In this document: in pieces, positions 7,250-64,000 of the stretch
Position numbering within the stretch: position 1 is the first letter of the stretch
Layout of the letters: every line of letters begins with the position of its first letter
DNA from: Gekko japonicus
Taxonomy: Eukaryota
Reading direction: 5' to 3'
Assembly: GCF_001447785.1 (NCBI RefSeq)
Contig: NW_015177022.1
Span: forward strand, 916,654 to 980,653
Length of the DNA: 64,000 bases
Made by a program: the position numbers and the translations under genes
Notes under the pieces: model-generated
Database searches by the model: none
Seen by the model: only the letters and a program-made list of their open reading frames with translations
What the model was told of the DNA's origin: nothing

Positions 7250-8170
7250 TTAATCTATTTATCTTCAACATTTGTATCCCCCCTTGCTGCGCTCATCAAC
7301 AATTGAAACTTAGAGCAGGAAAGAGGGATCATAAAGGAATTCCAGATGAAGCAAAAAAGTCTTTACCCATTGGCTGAAGACAGCAACAGAAGGGGACGGA
7401 TGAGAGAGTTCCAAAGTTTTAGAGCCATGACCAGGAAGGCTCTCCCCCAGCTTGCTACCCACCTAATCTCAGCTGGTGGGGCACCTGAACTGTGGCCTCG
7501 ACTGTAGTCAGTGGTCAGGTAGGTTTGTAAGGGAAGTAGGCAGTCCTTCAGGTATGCTGGTTCCAAGCCATACAGAGCTTCGTAGGTCAACAAGAAGACT
7601 GCCAAGACTGGAGTGATATAGTCCCTACTACCCTCGCCAGTCAGCATCTTGGCTGAAGTATTATGCTGTGATTGAAATTTCTGAACACTCTTCAAGGGCA
7701 GCCCCACACAGAGTACATTGCAGTAATCTAAATGTAACCAGGGTATGCACCAGTGGCCAGATCTTTTCTGCTCAAGAAAGGCCTTAGCTTGCTAACCATT
7801 CAAAGGTGGTAAAAGAAGAAGAAGAGAAGAGATTGGATTTATACCCCACCCTTCACTACCCAAAGGTGTCTCAGAGCGGCTTACAAACTCCTTTCCCTTC
7901 CCCTCCCCACAACAGACACCCTGTGAGGTAGGTGGGGCTGAGAGAGCTCTTGACAGAAACTGCTCTTTTTCAAGAACAGCTCTTATCAGAACTAGGGCTT
8001 GCCCAAGGTCATCCAGCCAGGTGCAAGTGGTGGAGTGGGGAATCAAACCTGGTTCTCCCAGATTAGAGTCCGCGCACTTAACCACTACACCAAACTGGTA
8101 AAAGGCACTCCTGTCCACACCTGCCACCTGCTTATCCAGCTGAAGACCTGGGTCCAAGAGCATCCCCTAA
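7250..8170 (-). mobile_element. L2 LINE ORF2 3' region, interrupted by a Squam3 SINE
   Basis: Minus-strand translations LLDPGLQLDKQV..SAFYQ, YITPVL..LLTYEALYGLEPAYLKDCL and GRAFLVMALKLWNSL are typical L2 ORF2 C-terminal motifs. Confidence 0.8.
7816..8097 (-). mobile_element. Young Squam3-type SINE (gecko-like subfamily, (ttc)n tail)
   Basis: Minus strand starts cagtttggtgtagtggttaag (A box) and ggtttgattcccc (B box), ends ataaatccaatctcttc(ttc)n; flanked by a ggtaaaag direct repeat. Confidence 0.9.
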
Positions 8171-9857: not shown

Positions 9858-10023
9858 TTTGGACAAGAAGAGAGGACTTGGTATCAGGGCAGATATGAGC
9901 CACTGTAGGCTCCCAGAGAAAGATCACATCTGGGCCTGCTTTGGACAAGAAGAGAGGACTTGGTATCAGGGCAGATATGAGCCACTGTAGGCTCCCAGAG
10001 AAAGATCACATCTGGGCCTGCTT
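9858..10023. repeat. Perfect tandem duplication, period 82 bp
   Basis: tttggacaagaagagagg...ctgggcctgc is repeated identically (ggac at 9861 and 9943). Confidence 0.95.
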
Positions 10024-10057
10024 TCTGCCCCACCCACCCAAACATATGACCTGTTGG

Positions 10058-10380
10058 TAAGCTTGCCGAGTCCCCCGCCCCAGAGGCCCGTTCCCCGCCG
10101 CCGGTGGATCGGGCCCCGGGGGAACCCCACCCCGACGTGCACGTCACCCAAAAATGACGCATCCACGCCGGGCACGCTGGAGGCGGGGCCATGGTCATCC
10201 GAGGGAAAACTCTATGGTTTTCCCTCGGATGGTCGTGGCCCCGCCCCCAGCGTGCCTGGTGTGGTCGCGTCACTTTTGAGTGATGTGGATGCGGCGCGTG
10301 CGCACTTTGCGCATGCACACGCACTCCAGCCGCCAGCCGGGAGTCCCCCGCTGTGGCGAAAATCAGACTTGGCAACCCTA
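10058..10380. mobile_element. Young CpG-rich hAT (Blackjack-like) MITE with a central hairpin
   Basis: Perfect 8-bp TSD cctgttgg (10050-10057 and 10381-10388); ends taagcttgcc...ttggcaacccta; ~70-bp inverted arms 10141-10210 and 10217-10286. Confidence 0.9.
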
Positions 10381-12466
10381 CCTGTTGGTAGCATGACTTA
10401 ACCTAATGCTTGCTTATCAAGCTGGGTCTTTATTCAGGGTTCCTGTTGTAGGGTGCATTTTAAAGCAGAGGAGGGCCAAGAGGATCCAATTCATCCATTT
10501 CTCTTTCAGCATGGAAGCCCACAGAGTGGTGGGGAGAAACGGAGGTGAACGTAATTGTTATGTATTGAGCCTAAGCCATCCCTGAATGTGGACCTTGAAC
10601 TGGGTGAGCTTGCTCCCCAAGAACAATAGCTGACCAGGATCCTGGAAATGACTTATAGATAAGCAGTGTAATGTAAATAGCCTATCCTTGGGAGTGTATT
10701 TGTGGGGGGTGTGCTGTTTGCATGCTTTGTAAGCAGGGCTCAAACCCTGCTGGGTGTCCTTGTTGTATTCCTGAAATCACTAAATAAACTAGAGCTGATC
10801 ACTGCAATGTGTCCAGAACCCAGTATTTAACAGTAATGGTAGGATGTCACTGAATTTAGAGCTGAACACCAGTAATGCCTTGCCTGGACAAACAGGGCCT
10901 CTGGAATTTTGTCCTCTGTATAACACCCCTCTTGTTGGCCTTGTTTGGCCTAGGGATAGCACAATTTTCAGTGCATCCCTGTATTTTGTATAACATATAA
11001 TGCTGCACACAGATGGTTAGGACAGTAGTCCCCCTCTAGGTTTTGTAAGTCCTTCAGATAATGTCTGTTGTAACCCTGATTGATTTATTTGATACCGGTG
11101 CAATTGGCAGCAGGGTCTGAAATATAACATAAGCACTTCCTGAGATGTCAGGACTCCAATGTTAGTGGTCTGAACAAGGATGTAATTCATATCTGCAGGT
11201 GCTTATTCTAGTATCAAACACTTTAATAACATCATGCTTGTGGAATTCGGAGCTCCCCCGTGTCTCATTTGTATTCCGATATGCCCACATCTTTCCTATG
11301 TGTGTTTTTCTTTCTTAAGGAGCTCTCATTTCCTTCAATAGGATATGTTTTATTTCATCCTTTTTCCTGCATTTACTCATATTAATGTCACTGCATTCAC
11401 TAGTAATGGCTAGGCTTGGAAATAGCCCGTATATCCATGAAAACACCGGGCCCTGAAATTTAATGCCAGGGATGGTTTATTAAGGAAGAATGGATTGTTA
11501 AATGGGAGCGATGCAGCCCCTGATTCTTGAGACTCTTCTCTGATCTAACACATCAGAAATTGCCCTGTGTACCTTTTACTTGCGGTGTGGTGTGTCCGCT
11601 ACATTTTTGGTTTGGGCTGGAGGGACCCTGGTGCTATTATCTGGAACTCACCCATTCCAAAAGAACAGGAAGTGGATGGTAGCATGGGATGGAAGAAAGC
11701 CAAAATTTATATCCTTCGAAGGCTTGGTTGGGATGGGCTAGTGGAGAGGAATTAGTGGCACTTAGAAAGGCAGAACACAAGAATGGGAAAATAAGATGTC
11801 TTGGATTTGTTCCCAGTTTTTTTTTAATGGGAGTGTTGTGTTAGAGCTGGAGCCAGAAATGGTAGATGTCAAACCTATGCTGAGGTTTCATTTTCCTTTT
11901 GCCACTGATGTAACCTTAAAGCCATAATTTGTTTTATGTCAGTGGACAGGATGGCCTAAAGATGGGAATAGAGGAAAATTGACAATCCATGTTATATCGG
12001 TGGTCTCCAGCTTCTTCAGACTTACTTCAGGACCTACTTTTAACCCCATGTGATACCAGGGCTTAAGCTGCTGTGTCACAGGAAGATGGGGAGCCAGAGG
12101 CTTGGACTGTGGTTTCATGGTGAAGAGCAAGCCAAGAATCGAAACTATGGAGGAATCCTACAGAAAAGAAAATCTGACCCTCAATATACAGCATACATTT
12201 CAACAAACAGGACTAAGCAAAAGCCCTTCTAAAAAAAATCTGCTTTGCCATCTTTTCTGTCTTTTGATAAAACATCGCTCTGACCTCCTCTGGGCAGCCA
12301 TTCTTAAGGTTGGAGCCACAATGGAAAATACCCCCAACCAGGTCAAAGGAGAGTGCACCTCTCCAAGCAATGGCACCACAAGAAAATGTGGTGACGGGAG
12401 CACAGTTGGTATGGGGGTTCATATAGGGAGATGTGGTCCATCAACTGAGATTGCTCCCATGAAAAG

Positions 12467-17340: not shown

Positions 17341-17681
17341 CAGGGATCGTTTCGTAGAAAAAGAGCTAGGGGAACTCATTAGCATAACTCATTAGCATAT
17401 GCCACACCCCCTGACATCAGGGGCCCGGCGGTGGACCTGCAAGGCCAGCGGGAGTGCGAGGAAGCCCTGCCAAGGCCCTCCCTGGCCCCAGGCAGGCAGG
17501 GGTGGGGAGAGGCAGGGAGGAAGCAACTTACCCTCCCTCTTCTCCTGCCTCCTCCTGGCTGAATGAGGGCCGGAAGCAGGGTGGCCGGAAGCAGGGGGCG
17601 GGGCTTCATCATGTGCCCCGCCCCCCATACCTCACCCGGGGGAACTGTGATCCCCCGCGATCCCCCCCGAAATGACCTCTG
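17341..17681 (+). mobile_element. hAT-type MITE, caggggtcattt-TIR family
   Basis: TIRs cagggatcgtttcg / cgaaatgacctctg; perfect 8-bp TSD gtggtgta (17333-17340 and 17682-17689). Confidence 0.92.
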
Positions 17682-20913: not shown

Positions 20914-23900
20914 AGATGTGATGCTGGAAATGCCCACCCTCCAAATCTGCGAGAGAAGTGGTCTCAGTAGACTGAAGATCAGTTGAAATTCTGGGAGAAT
21001 TTCAGGTTGTTAACCATGAGCAGCCATACTGTGATGAGCAAGTGGTTAGCACAGCTTAAGTGACGTTTTTGCATCAATAGGATGATTTTCCTTATTGTCA
21101 GAGAGAGAGGAGGAGGGGAAAGATTACGTCTTTGCTATTGGCTGAACTGCTCAGATCCCAGAGAATGGTAGGTCTCTGGCACAAAGGCCTAGGAACTGGA
21201 AAGTGGGAGATGAGAGCCTAAGAATGCACAAGCCCCAGTGATACATAGGACAACTGGATCGTGTTTTGAGAGGCACAGTGGTCCAGATGAATGAGGAGGA
21301 AAGGAAAAGGCTACAGACAGAAGTCTGCCACGGAAGAGAAAATGTACATGATCAGTAAGTGATCAAGCATTGCTCTCCTGTTTTCTAATATCTGCCCTTA
21401 TTTTTGTCCACGGGGAACATTCCCTTAAAATATTTCAGTATGAATTGCTTTTGCCACCATTTCTCAGGATCCAGCTGTTATGGCATTTTCAGCAATATTC
21501 TTTATGGCAACTTTTCAATAGTTTTGCATCACTGTGAGTCTGTTGCCATCAAGCCTCCATTTCTTTGGCTTCCTTCTATCTTGGCAACTGAGACCTGCTC
21601 CTCTCTGCCAGTCATGCGTGGTCCAGAAAATGAATTTCAGGCTATCTCAGAGCCAGCGCCAGGAGACAGAGAGTGAGAGAGAGGAGGATCATGCATAATC
21701 TTGTGTAATCTTTTACTGGGAAAAACAGTGGTCCTGGAAAGAAGCAAACCTTTCCCCTAACCTTGAAACCATTAATCAGCATTTCTCAGTATGTAATCAA
21801 GAGTACTTTGGTACAAAGGACTGCAGCCTTCGCACTCAAGCCTCAGGAAGAACTAAAGCCCACATTAGCATTTCCTACAAAAAGTTGCTTGGTCCAGAGT
21901 CATTGGGATTTGGAGTCACTGGGATTTCCAGCCACAAACCCCAGATCAGTGAAGTAACTATGCTCACCTCCAACATTCCTCCTCCCTGTCCGATGAATTC
22001 CCCCTCCATTCTTTATTTGGAAATATTTCCAGGACCCCAGGCCTCTTTCATTTGCTCATCTTGCCCCTTCCTGATGTTCCAGAAGAGAAAAGAAAATTTA
22101 GAACGCAACTATTTGGCCCTATAACTGGAGCTAGAATTGCTCTCCCAAGTTGGCTTTGACCAACGATGCTGTCTTGTGAGCAGTAAGGTACCTTACTCTG
22201 ATCACCCTGTCATGTTTCTGTGACCGTCTTTGGAAATACAAGGAGCCTTTCCCGCCTTCTGCTCTTCCCTGGAGATTTATCTTTTGTATTATATTACTGC
22301 CTAAACGTTTGAACCCTCACCTAAGGATCAGATATTTTGCAAGACTTGCACAGATTAGGTAGATAACTTCTGCTTTGCATAACTTCTGCTTTGCCCCCTT
22401 GCTCTACCTCTTTGGCCTCTTGCTTTGTGTTTTTGAGAGAAATGCATTGCACTGAGTGGGCATTTTGAATATTTGTATCTTAACATGGGTGTTTTAGTGT
22501 TAACTACTGCATCCTTGTTTTATTGTGATCGCCTGAGTGTACTAATTATTCCCCTTAGTAAACTACCTGTCATTGAATTGTACTGAAGGTCTCAAGGCAT
22601 CTTCTGAACTTGCAGCAGGAACTGTGTCATTATGTGAATGATCCCTTTGTTTCCATATGCGTTTGTCACTGAGCAGACTGGGTGTATTTTTGTAGTTGGG
22701 TGTAAAGCCTAAGCCAACAGCTCCTTTTACCTAGGAGCAAGAGGCAGTGGAAGGAAGTGGTTAGCCTAGTGCTCAGGCTACTCTAGTGTCTATTTCCACA
22801 AAATTGGAAGGTGGCCCTCCTTCCCATAACATGTGCATAGAGTGCATATGTCTCCCTAACCATACACTGTAGCAATATCCTGCTTTTCAGGCAGTAGCCA
22901 GTTGCTATTGTTGTCTAAAGGATGCAGGAGAAACTAGCTCCCCAAAGAACAACCTAGTTATATGCAAGGAGGTCCCTATAGTAAATGAGTGGTTAGCCTG
23001 CTCTTGGCATATTGCCAAAATGACTATATTAACACATGGATGCAAGAGTTATAATAACGTCCAGTCAGATTCACAGAAAAAGGGTCTATTTTGTTATGGT
23101 GTAGAATAAAAAAGGGAAGGATGAGAAAATGTCATTAGCTTTCTTTAAAGCACAATAGACCTCTTTATTTATACATGATGTTACCCAAAATAGACAGTCT
23201 CCACTAGTTTGGGGGAGTTAGCTTGGAGATGGAGTGAGAGGTGAGTAACCAGAATCTCCATCTTTGTATTACGGGGATTTGTACCTATGAGAGCTCTCGG
23301 ATAAACAGGATAAAACAAAGGTGCACACAGAAAGAACTAACTCGGAAGAAACAGGGAGGAAAGGGGAAAGCATTGTAGAGATGGGTGATTATTATTATTT
23401 ATTATCATATGGCAATGGATGAGTGATAATTACTGATCTTGAAGAGGTCTGTAGAAGCAGCAAAATTGAAGAGGAAATGGTCAGCATTTGGGGAAGTGAG
23501 AGAGGACCCACATGCAAGGATGTGTGTGAGGGGGATCCTAGGGTGGCAGGGTGACATATTGATAGGGCAAAATGTATCCTGAGGCAGGCTGACTAATTGC
23601 CAGAGGACAATGCCTTGATTGTTCTACTGGAGGAGGACAAAAGTGTGGGAGAGGTTTGGTAGCCCTGCAAGCACCAGATGGGAAGGGAGATGGGGAAGGT
23701 GAATAGATTTAAGCATTGATTAATCACTGCTTAATCAAGGGTAATGGGTGAAGAGGAAGTTAGGCTTGGGTGTTGAAGGGATTATTCCTGAGTGAATCAA
23801 TAGGTCCTGGGTGACCCATTGTTCTAAGTCACGCAGCTCTCCAGGGCAAGAAGGGGGTAGAAGCCAGCCAGCCGCTCTGACTCGTGCCTTGAAACCCATT

Positions 23901-25002: not shown

Positions 25003-25264
25003 AAGAAGAAGAGATTGGATTTATACCCCGCCCTTCCCTCGGAGTCTCAGAGTGGCTTACAGTCTCCTTCCCTTCCTCTCCCCACAACAGACACCCTGTG
25101 AGGTAGGTGGGGCTGAGAGAGCTCTTTTGAGGACTGCTCTTGAGAGAACAGCTCTGAGAGAACTGTGACTGACCCAAGGTCACCCAGCTGGCTGCATGCG
25201 GAGGAGTGGGGAATCAAACCTGGTTTTGCAGATTAGAGTCTGCTGCTCTTACCACTACACCAAA
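25003..25264 (-). mobile_element. Young Squam3-type SINE
   Basis: Closely similar to the 7816-8097 copy; aagaagaagagattggatttatacccc...accactacaccaaa. Confidence 0.9.
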
Positions 25265-27785: not shown

Positions 27786-28422
27786 CTAGGAGGACAAGTT
27801 CTATGAGGAAAGGCTGAAGGAGCTGGATATGTTTAGCCTGGAGAGGAGACGACTGAGATGATGTGATTACCATCTTCAAGTACATGAAGGGCTATCATAG
27901 AGAGGATGGTACAGAGTTGTTTTCTGTTGCCTCAGAAGGTCAGACCAGAACCAGCGGGTTGAAATTAAATCAGAAGAGTTTTCGGCTAAACATTAGGAAG
28001 AACTTCTTGACAGTTACAGCGTTCCTCAGTGGAACAGGCTTCCTTGGGAGGTGGTGCGCTCTCCTTCTTTGGAGGTTTTCAAACAGAGGTTAGGTGGCCA
28101 TCTGACAGCAATGCTAATTGTGTGAACTTAGGCAGATCATGAGAGGGAGGGCAGGAAGATTTGCCTCAGTGCTTAGTTCTTGAGGCCCTTTTTTACATGC
28201 CCAGGGAAACGCTGATCACCACTTTGAGGTCAGGAAGCAATTTTTCTCCAGGCCAGTTTGGCTGGAGATCCTGGAGGGTTTTTTTTTTTTGTCATCTTCT
28301 GGGCTTGGAACAGTGGTCACCAGGGTGTGGAGGGGTAGGTATTTGTGAGTGAATGTCCTGCATTGTGCATGTGGTTGGAATACATGATCCTGGAGGTCCC
28401 TTCCAACTCTATGATTCTGTGA
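27786..28422 (+). mobile_element. CR1 LINE 3' fragment
   Basis: [43 protein letters not shown]; ends ggtcccttccaactctatgattctgtga (CR1 octamer tail). Confidence 0.92.
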
Positions 28423-28499
28423 CTGGGGGGGCAGGCCTCTGACTATAGCTGGCAGGGATAAAGTGTGGGGGAAGAGCAGGCAGCATGCTTGTGGTGGTG

Positions 28500-28738
28500 G
28501 AGGAGGAGGTTTTTATACCCCACTCTTCACTACCCAAATGAGTCTCAGAGTGGCTTACAGTCTCCTTCCCTTCCTCTCTCTACAACAGACACCCTATGAG
28601 GTAGGTGGGGCTGAGAGAGTTCTGAGAGAGCTGTGACTGGCCCAAGGTCACCCAGCTGACTTTATGTGGAAGAGCAGAGAATCAAACCGGGTTCTCTAGA
28701 TTAGAGTCTGCTGCTTTTAACCACTATGCCACACCGGC
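28500..28738 (-). mobile_element. Squam3-type SINE
   Basis: ttttataccccactcttcactaccc...ttaaccactatgccacac. Confidence 0.85.
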
Positions 28739-29130: not shown

Positions 29131-29618
29131 CAGGGGTCATTTTGTAGAAAAAGAGGTTCAGGAGCTCATTAGCATAACTTATTTGCATATGCCACACCTC
29201 CTGACGTCACCAGAAGTGTGTCAGAGGGCAACACCCACCACTCAGTCTCCACTGGACTGTTTTGGATTGCTAGCTATGGGGGGGGGGGGAATGTAGAGAT
29301 CTGCCCTAANNNNNNNNNNNNNNNNNNNNNNNNNNNNNNNNNNNNNNNNNNNNNNNNNNNNNNNNNNNNNNNNNNNNGATTGCGTGCTGTGGGGGGGGGG
29401 GGAACGCGCAGATCTGTCCTCACAGAGGAGTGAGAGCTTGTACCTGAAGGCGGGCCGGAGGGGGGGGGGCTCTGCAACTTACCTGGCTGCTTCTTGCTCC
29501 TCATGGCCCGACGGAGACTGCTGGGAGCAGGAGGCGGGGCTTGTTGCATGTGCCCTCCCCCTGGGCTCCTTACTGCCGGAACTCCGCTCCTGTGTGCTCC
29601 TGCAGGAAATGACCCCTG
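29131..29618 (+). mobile_element. hAT-type MITE, caggggtcattt-TIR family (variant interior, contains an N-gap)
   Basis: TIRs caggggtcattt / aaatgacccctg; 8-bp TSD attatgta/attatgtc. Confidence 0.88.
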
Positions 29619-33335: not shown

Positions 33336-33835
33336 CCTGGACAGCCCAGGATAGCCTGATATCATCAGATCTCAGAAGCTAAGCAGGGTCATCTCTATTT
33401 AGTATTTGGATGGGAGACCATCCAGGAAACAAAGGCACCACACAGGTGATGGCAAACCACTTGTGTTCATCGCTTGCCTTGAAAACCCTATGGGGTTGCG
33501 GTAAATTGGCTGTAACTTGAAGAAGAGATTGGAGTTATACCCCACCCTTCACTACCCAAAGGAGTCTCAGAGCGGAGTCTCCACCTCCTTTCCCTTCCCC
33601 TCCCCACAACAGACACCCTGTGAGGCAGGTGGGGCTGAGAGAGCTCTTTCGAGAACTGCTTGTGAGAGAACAGCTCTGAAAGAACTTGTAACTGACCCAA
33701 GGTCACACCAGCAGCTGCATATGAAGGAGTGGGGAATCAAACGTGGTTCTCCCAGATTAGAGTCCGCACTCCTAACCACTACTCCAATGGCACTTTTACC
33801 ACTACTACACTTGATGGCACTTTTTACCACAAACT
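33336..33835 (+). mobile_element. 5S rRNA-derived SINE with a Squam3 SINE nested in its tail
   Basis: gatctcagaagctaagcagggtc...gtatttggatgggagacc matches the 5S internal control region; tail cttga|tggcactttt is split by the insert. Confidence 0.8.
33519..33787 (-). mobile_element. Young Squam3-type SINE
   Basis: Closely similar to 7816-8097. Confidence 0.9.
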
Positions 33836-34640: not shown

Positions 34641-35820
34641 TCATGAGTCATAGAATCATAGAGCTGGAACGGACCTCCAGGGTCCTCTAGTCCAACTCCC
34701 TGCACAATGCAGGAAATCTGCACTCCCAGTGAACACTGTTCCACACCCAGAAAATGACAAAAAAACCTCCAGGATCTCCAACCAAACTGGCCTGGAGAAA
34801 AATTGCTTCCTGACCCCAACGTGGTGATCAGGATTTCCCTGGGCATGTAAGAAAGGGTCACAAGAACTAAGCACTGAGGCAACCCTTCCTGCCCTCCCTC
34901 TCATGATCTGCCTAAGTTCACAAAATCCACATTGCTGTCAGATGGCCATCTAGCCTCTGTTTGAAAACCTCCAAAGAAGGAGAGCCCACCTCCTCCTGAG
35001 GAAGCCTGTTCCACTGAGGAACCTATGACAGCTCTTCAAGTACTTGAAGATGGTAATCATATCACCCCTCAGTTGTCTCCTCTCCAGGCTAAACATACCC
35101 AGCTCCTTCAACCTTTCCTCATAGGACGGTCTCCAGACCCCTCACCATCTTCGTTGCCCTCCTCTGGACATGTTCCAGCTTGTCTATAGCCTTCTTTAAC
35201 TGTGGTGCCCAAAACTGAACACAATACTCTAGGTGAGGTCTAAGCAGAGCAGAGTAAAGCAATACCATCACTTCGCGTGATCTGAACAGTATACTTCTAT
35301 TGATACAGCCCAAAATCGCATTTGCCTTTTTAGATACTGCATCACACTGCTGACTCATGTTCAGTGTATAATCTGCTAAGACCCCTAGATCCTATTTGCA
35401 CATACTACTGCCAAGACAAGTCTCCCCCATCCTATAATTATGCATTTGATTTTTCCTACCTAAATGCAGAACTTTACATTTATCCCCACTGAAATTCATT
35501 TTATTTGTCTTTGCCCAGTTTTCCAGCCTGTCAGGATCATCCTGTATCCTGACTCTGTCTTCTACCGTATTTGCTACCCCTCCCAATTTAGTATCGTCTG
35601 CAAATTTAAGAAGCATTCCCTTTATTCCTTCATCCAAATCATTGATAAAGACATCGAACAAAACAGGTCCCAGGACAGATCCTTGGGGCACTCCACTTGT
35701 CACTCCTCTACCATTCACAAACACTCTTTGGGTCCACCTAACTGTTTTGGATCCAAACCACATTTTACCAATTTGTCAATTAAAATATTATGTGGAGCCT
35801 TATCAAAAGTCTTACTGTGA
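34641..35820 (-). mobile_element. CR1 LINE ORF2 (reverse transcriptase) 3' portion, degenerate
   Basis: [61 protein letters not shown]; tcatagaatcatag tail. Confidence 0.95.
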
Positions 35821-36124
35821 AATCAAGAGTCATTCCCCACACTTTTGTCTATTCCTTTCTAACCCAAATACTCCCACATTCTCAACATGTGTAAAGAGAC
35901 TTTAAGGAGTCCTCCCTCTTGAAACTTTATTTAACAGAGGAGGACTATTATTAAAGGTTGTACAATAGCTTTTGAGATTCTTGGAGATGATTTTTGATAT
36001 TTTTGATTAAGATGATTTATTATATATGTACAAATTATTGTAAAAATATTTTTCAAAAATATAAAATCATTTATGATATGTTATAATCATCTGTGCACGG
36101 TACTTGTTGTATGTTGGCCTTCAG

Positions 36125-40499: not shown

Positions 40500-40760
40500 A
40501 ACATAAGAGAAGCCAATGTTGGATCAGGCCAATGGCCCATCCAATCCAACACTCTGTCACACAGTGACCAAAAATACCAGGTGCAATCAGGAAGTCCAGC
40601 AGTGGGGCCAGGACACTAGAAGCCCTCCCACTTTTGCCTCCCCCAAGCATTAAGAATACAGTGCATCACTTGCCCCAGACTGAGAGTTCCTATCTATACC
40701 TTGTGGCTAATAGCCACTGATGGACCTCTGCTCTAGATGGACCCACTGATGGACCTCTGG
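40500..40760 (-). mobile_element. CR1 LINE 3' end (ttcttatg-tail subfamily)
   Basis: aacataagagaagcc..ggatcaggccaatggcccatcc...atagccactgatggacctctg. Confidence 0.8.
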
Positions 40761-41478
40761 AAGAATGATAACTGTAGCACTGCACATCTGCATTTTAGCA
40801 AGACATCCTCAAAAGTTGAAAACAGGGATAAAATTGGGACTGTGATTTTCCATGGGGAAGAACCCGTTCCTTTCTGCCACTACCCTGGTCAGTTGGCAAC
40901 CTTTTTGCTTTTCATTAATAGGGATGGTGTTAGAGCTAAATTACTGCTTGAAAACCATGGCCTTGTGACATTAGATCTGTCCTCTTTGATCCCACAAATT
41001 CAAACATCAGCTACATCCAGAATGGCTTCAACTTGGGAATTGTGGTTTGTGAAGATAAAAGGCAGTGGTGTGCATGTGAACAAGCATGGAACATTGTACC
41101 TGTGGTGGAGAATGTCTTCCACTAAACAGCAGGGGATCTGTGGCACAAAAATCACCCAGATTTCTCTGGCACACGTTGTATTGTCTACATACTCAGATGG
41201 GGCTGTGTGCTGCGAACCTTGCCGTTTAGCTAGGTGCCGAGGAAAAGTGTGATGCTGTGGACCATATGGGCTGCAATATCACTTTGCCTCACCATGTGAT
41301 GACTTGGAATCTTGTAGCTTTTTGTCAGTTTATAGCAACACTGTTAACTGACTATAAGCCAAACATTTAAGATTTTGTCTTTAATGGGGGATTTGAGCAA
41401 GTGGGAGAAACGATGTACATTTAAATTAAGATAATAATTTCTTGCTAAAATCCATCAGGCCATTGGAAGAACTTTGGC

Positions 41479-41677: not shown

Positions 41678-42151
41678 ATCAATTTAAATATATATTTTCT
41701 TCCCAGATGTGTTTTCCTGTGGCTAGTGCTTGGAATTGAAAGGTGACATTTTATTTATTTAAAATATTTCTACCCTGCCTTATCTCCCCAAGTCTTTTGC
41801 ATTGGCCCATTGGCCCACCTTGTACAGAACTGTCTATTCCAGTTGTCAGTAACTCTCCAGGCAAGACTTTAGCCAGGATGGGGCTAATGGGGCACTGTTT
41901 TTTCACACCTGATACTTAAAACGACAACAACAGGTTTTCAAATATCTGACATGAGAGTTTCCATTTAAGCAATGGAAACTTTTTTTTTTGCCACTACATT
42001 TCTGCTAAAATAGGGAAGATCTCAGTGAGAAAGCATCTGCTTTTCAGGCAGAAAGTCCCAGGTTCAGTCTCTGGCACCTCCATTTTTTAAAAAGGATCTG
42101 GTAGGTTTTGTTGTGAAATGTGAATTGGCAGAGAAATGTGAATTGGCAGAA

Positions 42152-42185
42152 GCTGGGATTACAGGCATGAGCCACCACGCCTGGC
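42152..42185 (-). other. 34-bp segment matching the 5' end of a primate Alu left monomer
   Basis: Minus strand GCCAGGCGTGGTGGCTCATGCCTGTAATCCCAGC versus recalled Alu consensus GCCGGGCGCGGTGGCTCACGCCTGTAATCCCAGC: 31/34, all mismatches are CpG transitions. Confidence 0.75.
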
Positions 42186-42811
42186 AGAAAGTGACCTTAA
42201 GAGCCTCTTGCTCAGGGTCAAAGAGGAGAGTGCAAAAGTGGGCTTGAAGCTCAACATCAAAAAAACTAAGATCATGGCATCCGGCCCCATCACTCCTTGG
42301 CAAATAGAAGGGGAAGTCGTGGAAGTAGTGACAGACTTCACGTTCCTGGGATCCCAGATCACCGCAGACTGTGACTGCAGCCATGAAATTAAAAGACGCC
42401 TGCTCCTTGGGAGGAAAGCGATGGCGAACCTAAACAGCATGATAAAAAGTAGAGACATCACCCTGCCAACAAAAGTCCGCATGGTCAAAGCAATGGTATT
42501 CCCAGTAGTCATGTATGGCTGCGAGAGTTGGACGATAAGGAAGGCCGAGCGCCGAAGAATAGATGCTTTTGAACTATGGTGCTGGAGGAGACTCTTGAGA
42601 GTCCCTTGGACTGCAAGAAGAACAAATCAGTCAATCCTCAAAGAAATCAACCCTGACTGTTCCCTGGAAGGCCAGATAATGAAACTGAAGCTCAAATACT
42701 TTGGCCACCAAATGAGAAGGGAGCACTCACTGGAAAAGACCCTGATGCTGGGAAAGATTGAAGGTCAAAGAAGACGGGGACGGCAAAGGATGAGATGGTT
42801 AGACAGTGTCA
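42182..42811 (+). mobile_element. BovB (RTE-clade) LINE fragment, open reading frame across the RT C-terminal region
   Basis: KVGLKLNIKKTKIMASGPITPWQIEGE..DCSHEIKRRLLLGRKAM..KAMVFPVVMYGCESWTIRKAERRRIDAFELWCWRRLLRVPWTARR..GRQRMRWLD is the characteristic BovB sequence. Confidence 0.97.
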
Positions 42812-42986
42812 CATCCCCCCGGGTGAGGTGCGGGAGGGCGGGGCCTGGAGCTCCCTGCTGGTGCCCGCTGGAGGTCGCCGCCGTCTGTGGGGAGGACACA
42901 CTTCCGGTGATGTCAGGGGGTGTGGCATATGCTAATGAGTTATGCTAATGAGTCCCCCTAGCTCTTTTTCTACAAAATGACCCCTG
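42812..42986 (-). mobile_element. hAT MITE, caggggtcattt-TIR family, lacking one terminus
   Basis: Reverse complement of the 17341 left end (atgctaatgagttatgctaatgag...aaaatgacccctg); shares cacctcacccggggg with the right part of 17341-17681. Confidence 0.85.
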
Positions 42987-46127: not shown

Positions 46128-46317
46128 TGCTGTCAAGTCACGGCCAATTTATGGCAACCCTGTAGGGTTTTCAAGGCAAGAGACTAACAGGTGGCCTGCC
46201 TTTATGTAATGACCCTGGTATTCCCTGGTGATCTCCCATCCAAATACTGACAAGGGCGAACCCTTCTTAGCTTCCCAGATCTGATGGAATCAGGCTAGCT
46301 GGTCTACCAGTTAAGGC
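46128..46317 (-). mobile_element. 5S rRNA-derived SINE
   Basis: tctcccatccaaatactgac...cttagcttcccagatctga is the reverse complement of the 5S control region; Sauria-like tail. Confidence 0.8.
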
Positions 46318-60584: not shown

Positions 60585-61474
60585 TAGGGTTGCCAGCTCT
60601 GGCTTGGATAGTCCTGGAGATTTGGGGGCAGAGCCTGAAGACAATGGAATTTTTCAGGGGGGAGGAACAAAGCTCTACGGGAATGTAATGTGATTCTAAA
60701 ACTCCTGTTTCTCTTAGACTCCGTAGTACGCCATAGAGACTGCCCTCCAAAGCTGCCATTTCCTCTACAGAAACTGATCTCTGTAGTCTGGAGATCAACT
60801 GTAACTCTGGGAGATCTCCAGGCCCCACCTTGTTGGTATAGGCAAGATAACAGCATGTCATGGAACATGACTTAGATCCAGATGATCTAAAGTGACAGCC
60901 AGGAGGTCACATGATGCCTATGGTTGCATCATATCTGCAGATGTTAGAATGACTAAGCAAATGTACAGCACTGTACTGTGATTGGTCAACATGTATATAT
61001 ATTGCAATGAGTTCTTGACCAAGTAGCCTGCCTTATGGTTGTGTTGTTAGCGAAGCACTTTGTCAGCGAGGATTCTGAACTTCTGCAAGCTGTGTGTATG
61101 TATATAAGCTCTGTAAATAAACTGTAAATACTCTACCACAACAACTCTGCTATCTTCNNNNNNNNNNNNNNNNNNNNNNNNNNNNNNNNNNNNNNNNNNN
61201 NNNNNNNNNATCTGCAGATGTCAGAATGACTAAGCAAATGTACAGCACTGTACTGTGATTGGTCAACATGTATATATATTGCAATGAGTTCTTGACCAAG
61301 TAGCCTGCCTTATGGTTGTGTTGTTAGCGAAGCACTTTGTCAGTGAGGATTCTGAACTGCTGCAAGCTGTGTGTATGTATATAAGCTCTGTAAATAATCT
61401 GTAAATACTCTACCACAACAACTCTGCTATCTTCCGGCTTCAAACACCGTCACACCTGGAGGCTGGTAACCCTA
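60585..61474. mobile_element. hAT Blackjack-like MITE interrupted by an LTR element
   Basis: tagggttgcca ... ccccacct | insert | cacctggaggctggtaacccta. Confidence 0.8.
60831..61452 (+). mobile_element. LTR element: two partial ~345-bp LTR copies flanking N-gap 61158-61209
   Basis: TG...CA ends, perfect 5-bp TSD cacct, attgg/tatata/aataaa signals; 60933-61157 aligns to 61210-61434 with 4 substitutions. Confidence 0.8.
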
Positions 61475-61816: not shown

Positions 61817-62048
61817 AGCATTTCCTACAAGCAGGTTATTAGTTCAGATCATTGGACTCCAAAATAGTGCTCATGTGCACCATAACACCCGCCAGTGGTT
61901 TCCCTAATGCCTTTTTTGCTTCTTCATCTAAGAGCATTTCCTACAAGCAGGTTATTAGTTCAGATCATTGGACTCCAAAATAGTGCTCATGTGCACCATA
62001 ACACCCGCCAGTGGTTTCCCTAATGCCTTTTTTGCTTCTTCATCTAAG
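61817..62048. repeat. Perfect tandem duplication, period 116 bp
   Basis: agcatttcctacaagcagg...cttcatctaag repeated identically. Confidence 0.95.
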
Positions 62049-63690: not shown

Positions 63691-64000
63691 CAGGGGTCAT
63701 TTCGTAGAAAAAGAGCTAGGGGAACTCATTAGCATAACTCATTAGCATATACCACACCCCCTGACATCAGGGGCCCGGCGGTGGACCTGCAAGGCCAGCG
63801 GGAGTGCGAGGAAGCCCCGCCAAGGCCCTCCCTGGCCCCAGGCAGGCAGGGGTGGGGAGAGGTGGGGAGGAAGCAACTTACCCTCCATCTTCTCCTGCCT
63901 CCTCCTGGTTGAATGAGGGCTGGAAGTGGAGCGGCCGGAAGCAGGGGGCGGGGCTTCATCATGTGCCCCGCCCCCCTGCACCTCACCCGGGGGAACTGCG
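63691..64000 (+). mobile_element. hAT MITE, caggggtcattt-TIR family (cut by the window edge)
   Basis: Collinear with 17341-17650, about 95% identical by eye. Confidence 0.92.

Follow-up and report, generated by a model that had tools for sequence, protein, structure and literature searches.

The window analysed here is a stretch of 64,000 nt from Gekko japonicus, and contains a 34-nt sequence (the 34-mer, 42152..42185) that lies within a cluster of incomplete repeats. On its left is the 5' half of a tRNA-headed SINE (42014..42118, plus strand), which is cut at 42118 and lacks its 3' half. This is followed by an exact tandem duplication of 2 × 18 nt (42115..42150, plus strand), then one A, and then the insert. 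On its right is an internal, RT-coding fragment of a young BovB LINE of the RTE clade (42182..42813, plus strand), recognised by protein and nucleotide comparison, which in turn is joined through a 5-nt overlap, TCACA, to a hAT-type MITE (42809..42986, plus strand) that lacks its first ~31 nt, and with them one terminal repeat. The 34-mer shares the four nucleotides TGGC (42182..42185, plus strand) with the BovB fragment. The 8-nt sequence TGGCAGAA is found at 42144..42151 (plus strand) and again at 42182-42189, as the opening 8 nt of the BovB fragment. The 34-mer, the shared TGGC and the 8-nt direct repeats are exactly where an earlier note on this DNA had placed them.

The left SINE gives a weak tRNA match (42014-42082, 17.1 bits) and aligns with four other copies in the window (41480, 31660, 38062 and 49109); a search downstream with the 3' halves of three other copies did not find the missing half. 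It was rejected as a Squam3 element, its head differing from all Squam3 rows compared, and is possibly Squam2. An intact copy of the MITE (17341-17681) has an 8-nt target duplication, and no target duplication matching the MITE at 42809-42986 is present upstream. The SINE, the BovB and the MITE are each cut, and no TSD survives. The site had been described as the 5' junction of a BovB LINE, but it is not a clean one, with all three repeats truncated and no target duplication; the description overlooked both the lack of a 3' end or TSD in the BovB and the truncation of the two adjoining repeats. The 8-nt repeat is not a target-site duplication, because the left copy is BovB's own sequence, as well as being the end of the 18-nt tandem duplication. 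It was likewise rejected as the TSD of an Alu, since it belongs to BovB and no tail is present. Repeats of 8 nt bracketing ~30 nt occur at 289 of 62602 positions in the window (0.46%).

The earlier assignment of the host to reptiles is borne out by Squam3B3 SINEs of the gekkonid type. Squam3B-type SINEs are found on the minus strand at 7825-8093, 25005-25263, 33519-33787 and 28512-28737 and align well with each other; the copies at 7825, 25005 and 33519 are ~270 nt long, which is the longer B3 form typical of Gekkonidae, and the copy at 28512 is shorter. The SINE at 7825 matches by eye the Gekkonidae B3 rows in the part of the Squam3 data of PMC7983390 that was compared, and the host is therefore a gekkonid. 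A 5S rRNA-headed SINE of ~200 nt is present in five copies (33336, 36858, 39465, 46130-46311 on the minus strand, and 59019), four of which are flagged by Rfam, below the gathering score. We take this to be, probably, the known 5S-Sauria class. The GC-rich hAT-type MITE family (17341-17681, 29131-29618, 63691-64000 and 42809-42986) carries terminal repeats that are imperfect and, internally, a 13-nt sequence twice in tandem. The region 10050-10385 is GC- and CpG-rich, has a long hairpin, matches the mir-763 model (E 8e-6, below the gathering score) and is probably another young non-autonomous DNA transposon. Pfam was run on 25 of the 102 long ORFs and gave one CR1-like RT and one sub-threshold match only, and therefore no host gene was placed. 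The RT is a LINE fragment at 34646-35900 (minus strand; RVT_1, E 1e-11), with a related piece at 27798-28424. The sub-threshold match is to SpmSyn_N, at 40887-41003 within ORF 40737-41249 (E 0.003, 18.2 bits against a cutoff of 25), and may be due to chance.

The window has seven N gaps, and the N closest to the 34-mer are 3589 nt to its right and 12775 nt to its left. Units of 82, 116 and 16 nt are each present in it as two exact copies, the first two in tandem, and a 225-nt block is repeated with four mismatches on both sides of the N gap at 61158. The duplications and the near-duplicate (9858-10024, 61817-62048, 60933-61434 and 22363-22394) are likely to be scars of short-read scaffolding and gap closing.

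The identification of the LINE as BovB stands. The best named match is to a Crotalus RT, at 85% amino acid identity, and at 180 of the 206 positions the fragment has the residue shared by most of 24 named proteins from reptiles and ruminants. The fragment is ~79% identical in nucleotide sequence to BovB pieces in contaminant contigs of bacterial genome records (L001-L008). In such records, pieces of BovB RT make up small contigs or the ends of contigs (L001-L019; 21 loci in all), and those of L001-L019 are presumably of ruminant type. In the gecko the frame is open for 207 codons, with a 6-nt in-frame deletion near 42194, just past the join. There is no YADD motif and no 3' end, the fragment stopping ~100 nt before the BovB end seen in L001-L005. 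The hallmark of BovB is a 3' microsatellite tail and a TSD with a Tn-TA signature (PMC13295347, in the part used here). Neither is seen here, and the fragment ends in the MITE.

The 34-mer reads in frame with the BovB RT. An RT fusion gene was considered and rejected, as an in-frame join is a 1-in-3 event and there is no start or promoter. A search with the junction peptide gave 62 matches among 65 candidates, which by names, domains and coverage are BovB-type only. Four-residue words of the insert peptide are found in none of the 145 anchored BovB-type proteins (of 179), and YxDD is present at that place in 91.

In the sequence, the 34-mer is beyond doubt a member of the Alu/7SL family, as had been proposed. 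Its minus strand aligns in Rfam with nt 1-34 of such an RNA, in CpG-decayed form and with U at model position 16 (42170), and it is thus inverted with respect to the BovB. An Rfam scan of 42120-42220 gave four matches, every one of them on the 34-mer. The match to Metazoa_SRP spans model positions 1-34 on the minus strand, and model position 1 falls at 42185. In the same 101-nt scan mir-1972 matches on both strands, and 42152-42176 is identical at 25/25 positions to positions 5-29 of the mir-619 consensus, positions 16, 18 and 19 included. Both mir-619 and mir-1972 are, we assume, derived from primate Alu. Sites for miR-619-5p are contained in AluSq2 and AluSx (PMC6651528, in the section used). 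All of the Rfam scores for the 34-mer are below the gathering score, as expected of a 34-nt piece. At the gathering threshold the entire 64-kb window gave no matches, and at E 10 the 34-mer was not reported over 501 nt or over the full window; the 101-nt scan alone showed it. No SRP or Alu-type match occurs elsewhere among the 21 Rfam matches in the window, in a scan insensitive enough to have missed the 34-mer too.

For the 30 nt outside the overlap, and allowing 300 start points and 100 variants, the chance expectation is ~1e-9 per window, or 3e-5 to 1e-4 per 2.5 Gb. With the 25-mer alone, 0.05-0.4 chance matches are expected per genome. A shuffle control of the match is circular and was not relied on. 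The exact 34-mer was not found in the full texts of papers, and 42100-42200 has no match among plasmids and only two chance 19-nt matches among phages (E 3). Of the features of an Alu element, it has a 5' end derived from 7SL, with the bases of the left arm at positions 16 and 18. It does not have the ~280-nt dimer, A-rich linker, tail or own TSD, and the similarity ends by 42147.

The bases to the left of the insert (42124..42143, plus strand) have a weak likeness to the BovB stretch coding for I-A-G-R-N-I-N, which normally lies upstream of the fragment; the gapped local match has P about 0.015, uncorrected, when set against random stretches of the window. The length of 42124-42205 equals that of the matching BovB span exactly, with the first 8 nt in register at 7/8, and the insert aligns with the YADDTTL-coding bases that it replaces (P 0.013-0.03, uncorrected). 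When 42119-42151 was parsed greedily into words templated by the flank, only matches of 4-6 nt were obtained. The scar looks more like a BovB patch that was corrupted than like a clean 5' end, and is not fully explained. It could be proposed that the whole is simply the YADD region of BovB after mutation, with a fortuitous likeness to Alu, given that 20 of 26 BovB bases are paired with the insert when gaps are allowed and the net length is conserved. However, the in-register identity is only 10/30, four small indels would fall within 27 columns of a copy otherwise free of frameshifts, and with a chance expectation of at most 1e-4 per genome this proposal is nearly excluded.

The assignment of the 34-mer to primates is weaker than had been claimed, because TAATCC is also found outside primates and one of the supposed CpG changes can be BovB's own base. 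Position-by-position comparisons were made with Rfam consensuses (mir-619, mir-1972 and Metazoa_SRP) rather than directly with an Alu consensus or a reptile 7SL. The three mismatches to Alu reported earlier, all of them at CpG, appear to agree with the Alu consensus. The difference at position 18 can be CpG decay, and that at model position 4 (42182), inside the overlap, can be BovB's base. TAATCC had been put forward as a marker of Alu against 7SL, and it fails, in that the Rfam metazoan SRP consensus has AAU at 26-28 and the consensus of Urop-m, a non-primate SINE of shrew moles, carries TAATCC in the displayed part of the PMC13023118 supplement. The second proposed marker, GGCTCA, retains value at position 16, which is U in the 34-mer and g in the Metazoa_SRP consensus; the rest of it is not informative, and T16 is also carried, by independent origin, by the Urop_c left monomers in the same supplement. 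In the 12 Urop-m copies displayed there, position 16 is A in 10, G in 2 and T in 0, and therefore a G16 master rarely decays to T. The call of a primate source thus depends on position 16 and on a CpG decay greater than that of the BovB copy.

Compared with the SRP consensus, the 34-mer has kept one CpG and lost 3-4. The BovB copy has kept 15, and no more than 2 decays are visible in it, compared with 14 visible half-sites; it has kept four of the five CpG shared with the reference and shows 0 transitions. The contrast between insert and BovB (Fisher p 0.028-0.14) leans against equal age, and is weak without position 4. An open frame in BovB is unlikely at a divergence above about 5%, and from its sequence the copy appears to be young. 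The likelihood ratio in favour of an old Alu over host 7SL is roughly 67-1674 at a decay of at least 0.22, and higher at lower decay, with assumed rates used on the Alu side. Of the five bases past the 34-mer (42147-42151), four match the SRP consensus loop (p 0.016), yet these bases are part of the BovB-derived 8-mer. The mir-619 consensus is matched by only 2/4 bases beyond the 34-mer. That the extra bases match SRP better than mir-619 counts against a left-arm Alu.

The arrangement at the join brings in a different kind of explanation, in which a small RNA was captured during BovB integration. The earlier note suggested template switching, which is the wrong mechanism, because the small RNA would keep the orientation of the LINE, as in chimeras of the U6/L1 type, and the 34-mer is inverted. 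An inverted piece is the geometry of twin priming, which has been described for U5, U1, U2 and U6 with L1 or SVA, with U5 3'-truncated at 36-48 nt (PMC4476161, in the part used here). As in that class, the gecko piece starts at the RNA 5' end, is 3'-truncated and is on the minus strand where BovB is on the plus. There is, however, no TSD around the unit, and the LINE 3' end is absent. The 34-mer and BovB behave like an inverted small-RNA/LINE chimera, and may be one, but they fail the TSD test of the class and cannot be assigned to it. Capture by twin priming of an RNA of 7SL type from the host, of whatever form, is the main rival reading and is unlikely overall.

In its simpler form, which we consider improbable, the RNA would be the ordinary 7SL RNA of the host. 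The free top strand would copy bits of the BovB cDNA end and of its own flank, giving the repeats; priming in the second loop of the 7SL RNA would allow the BovB RT to run to nt 1; and the two cDNAs would join at a 3-4 nt overlap. CpG decay and one transversion would follow, and a later deletion would take the BovB tail. The start at model position 1 and the break in the loop at 31-38 fit this scheme well, and it matches inverted snRNA/L1 chimeras in their 3' truncation at 36-48 nt, opposite orientation and loop truncation, and perhaps in flank complementarity (PMC4476161, same part). RTE-type LINEs also make U6 chimeras in a lizard, in 3 copies, but only template-switch chimeras are described for RTE and L2 in that part of PMC4476161. 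Extra nucleotides at LINE 5' ends are often copied from the flank (PMC4245944, in the section used). Here the bases left of the insert look BovB-like rather than target-like. Moreover the scheme needs 2-3 CpG transitions together with a G-to-T change at the Alu left-arm marker, all in a young insertion (a ratio of at least 67 against), and the TSD and LINE 3' end that would define it are absent. A literature search on templated 7SL insertions found none.

The cost of these coincident changes is removed if U16 was already present in the host RNA. Gekkonids would then have an unrecognised 7SL variant, or a low-copy 7SL-derived Pol III repeat, with bases like those of the Alu left arm, which was either captured by the BovB RT through twin priming or present at the site as an old copy. 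This accounts for sequence and geometry together. It has precedents in the 7SL-derived SINEs that arose independently in hagfish and shrew moles (PMC7245038 and PMC13023118, in the parts used), and in the independent origin of U16 in Urop_c left monomers (PMC13023118). Even so we regard it as quite improbable. The 34-mer is single-copy in the 64-kb window (next best match 23/34), where dispersed copies would be expected of a SINE, and the part of PMC13023118 used lists only supraprimates, hagfish and shrew moles as having 7SL SINEs. Literature searches found no squamate case of a 7SL-derived SINE and no printed reptile 7SL sequence. The 34-mer folds as the expected first hairpin, and the base pairs of this hairpin are all canonical in the window sequence; but the hairpin is no more stable than shuffles (z only -1.15, with 28/200 shuffles equally good), and CpG decay preserves such pairs anyway.

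The reading that we prefer, to which we assign a probability of roughly 0.72, is that the 34-mer is a contaminant within a patched repeat cluster, namely a remnant of a human Alu of left-arm type that was old and had decayed at its CpG sites. Contamination or an assembly artefact was also the lead explanation in the earlier note, and it is kept. Human DNA would have contaminated the gecko sequencing data. The likeliest route would be a chimera in the sequencing library, arising where the beginning of the Alu partly resembles the YADD-coding stretch of BovB and then taken up by low-coverage filling of a gap in a repeat-rich short-read scaffold; the repeats of 18 and 8 nt would be overlaps left unmerged. 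In favour of contamination are the 25/25 match to the mir-619 consensus, the absence of T at position 16 in the 12 Urop-m copies displayed, the likelihood ratio for an old Alu, a decayed insert in a young BovB, the assembly scars, the truncation of all three repeats without a surviving TSD, the likeness of the insert to the BovB bases that it replaces, the equal lengths of 42124-42205 and the BovB span, and the lack of the insert peptide in the anchored BovB-type proteins. Contamination by Alu in assemblies of non-primates and a chimeric read have been documented (PMC3040168), as has an Alu concatenated to a genuine contig (PMC6581058, in the part used).

Some features fit human contamination less well. 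The published contaminants, in the parts of PMC3040168 and PMC6581058 used, adjoin N or lie on small contigs, and the 34-mer does neither. The start at nt 1, the inversion, the length of 34-39 nt, the break in the loop and the extra bases matching SRP are coincidental under contamination and expected of twin priming. The local repeats are also known as a signature of LINE 5' ends formed in vivo, which may be counted as a point against contamination. The family identity, the inversion, the overlaps, the truncated neighbours and the assembly scars are observations on the sequence, from which the human origin and the route of the 34-mer have to be kept apart: these we infer. It is concluded that the 34-mer is real in the sequence and most likely not real in the animal, where it does nothing, because it is probably not there.

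A mid-contig contaminant of comparable kind is found in a bacterial record. In L020 (CAZMFY010000100.1, positions 300-363), 54 nt of BovB and 10 N lie within a gene for glycine dehydrogenase subunit 2, replacing two codons of an otherwise colinear gene. The BovB piece is 98% identical to L001 and L003, and its end resembles the preceding host bases at 10/14. It is a mid-contig contaminant artefact, although the L020 piece abuts N and the 34-mer does not.

It is barely credible that Alu DNA or RNA from a primate truly entered the germ line of the gecko. To our knowledge primates carry no active BovB, which counts against transfer from primate to gecko. The sequence is of Alu type, and BovB is known for horizontal transfer (PMC13295347, in the part used), but the 34-mer is a genomic variant that has decayed and not an active master, it is a single 34-nt piece, and no vector is known.

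If the 34-mer is an artefact, as is most likely, then scraps of contaminant repeats only tens of bases long can sit mid-contig, far from any N. Such scraps would escape contamination filters and could mimic horizontal transfer, and this one is even in frame with the BovB RT. If it is real and derived from ordinary 7SL, twin-priming capture would be extended to 7SL RNA and to LINEs of the RTE clade. If it comes from an Alu-like 7SL derivative of geckos, this would be a further independent origin of Alu-like sequences outside mammals and hagfish, with a bearing on the repeated rise of 7SL-derived SINEs and their convergence on the same bases; and if that derivative was captured, it would be the first case of a LINE of the RTE clade making an inverted chimera of 7SL type.

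Among known systems, the 34-mer has in common with 7SL-derived SINEs (Alu, B1, Tu, hagfish SINE1-1_EBu and shrew-mole Urop) the 5' box of the 7SL Alu domain, but unlike them it has no body, tail, TSD or second copy. It resembles the U6/RTEX-2 template-switch chimeras of Anolis (PMC4476161, in the part used here) in that a piece of a Pol III RNA lies at the 5' end of a LINE in a lizard; U6/LINE chimeras of that type are co-oriented, whereas the gecko piece is inverted. The likeness to twin-priming chimeras (group IV in the same part of PMC4476161) is closer in form, in that the 5' end of a small RNA, broken off in a loop after ~35-50 nt, faces a 5'-truncated LINE head to head, with short matches at both joins. 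It differs from these in pairing an RNA of the 7SL family with a LINE of the RTE clade, neither of which is reported in that geometry in the part of PMC4476161 used, in having no TSD or LINE tail, and in bases that fit the primate repeat better than the vertebrate 7SL consensus. Compared with the Alu contaminants described in the parts of PMC3040168 and PMC6581058 used, the 34-mer is only 34 nt long, has no unique human flank, is not bounded by N and lies between host repeats with short overlaps; it shares with them the occurrence of Alu-type sequence in a short-read scaffold of a non-primate.
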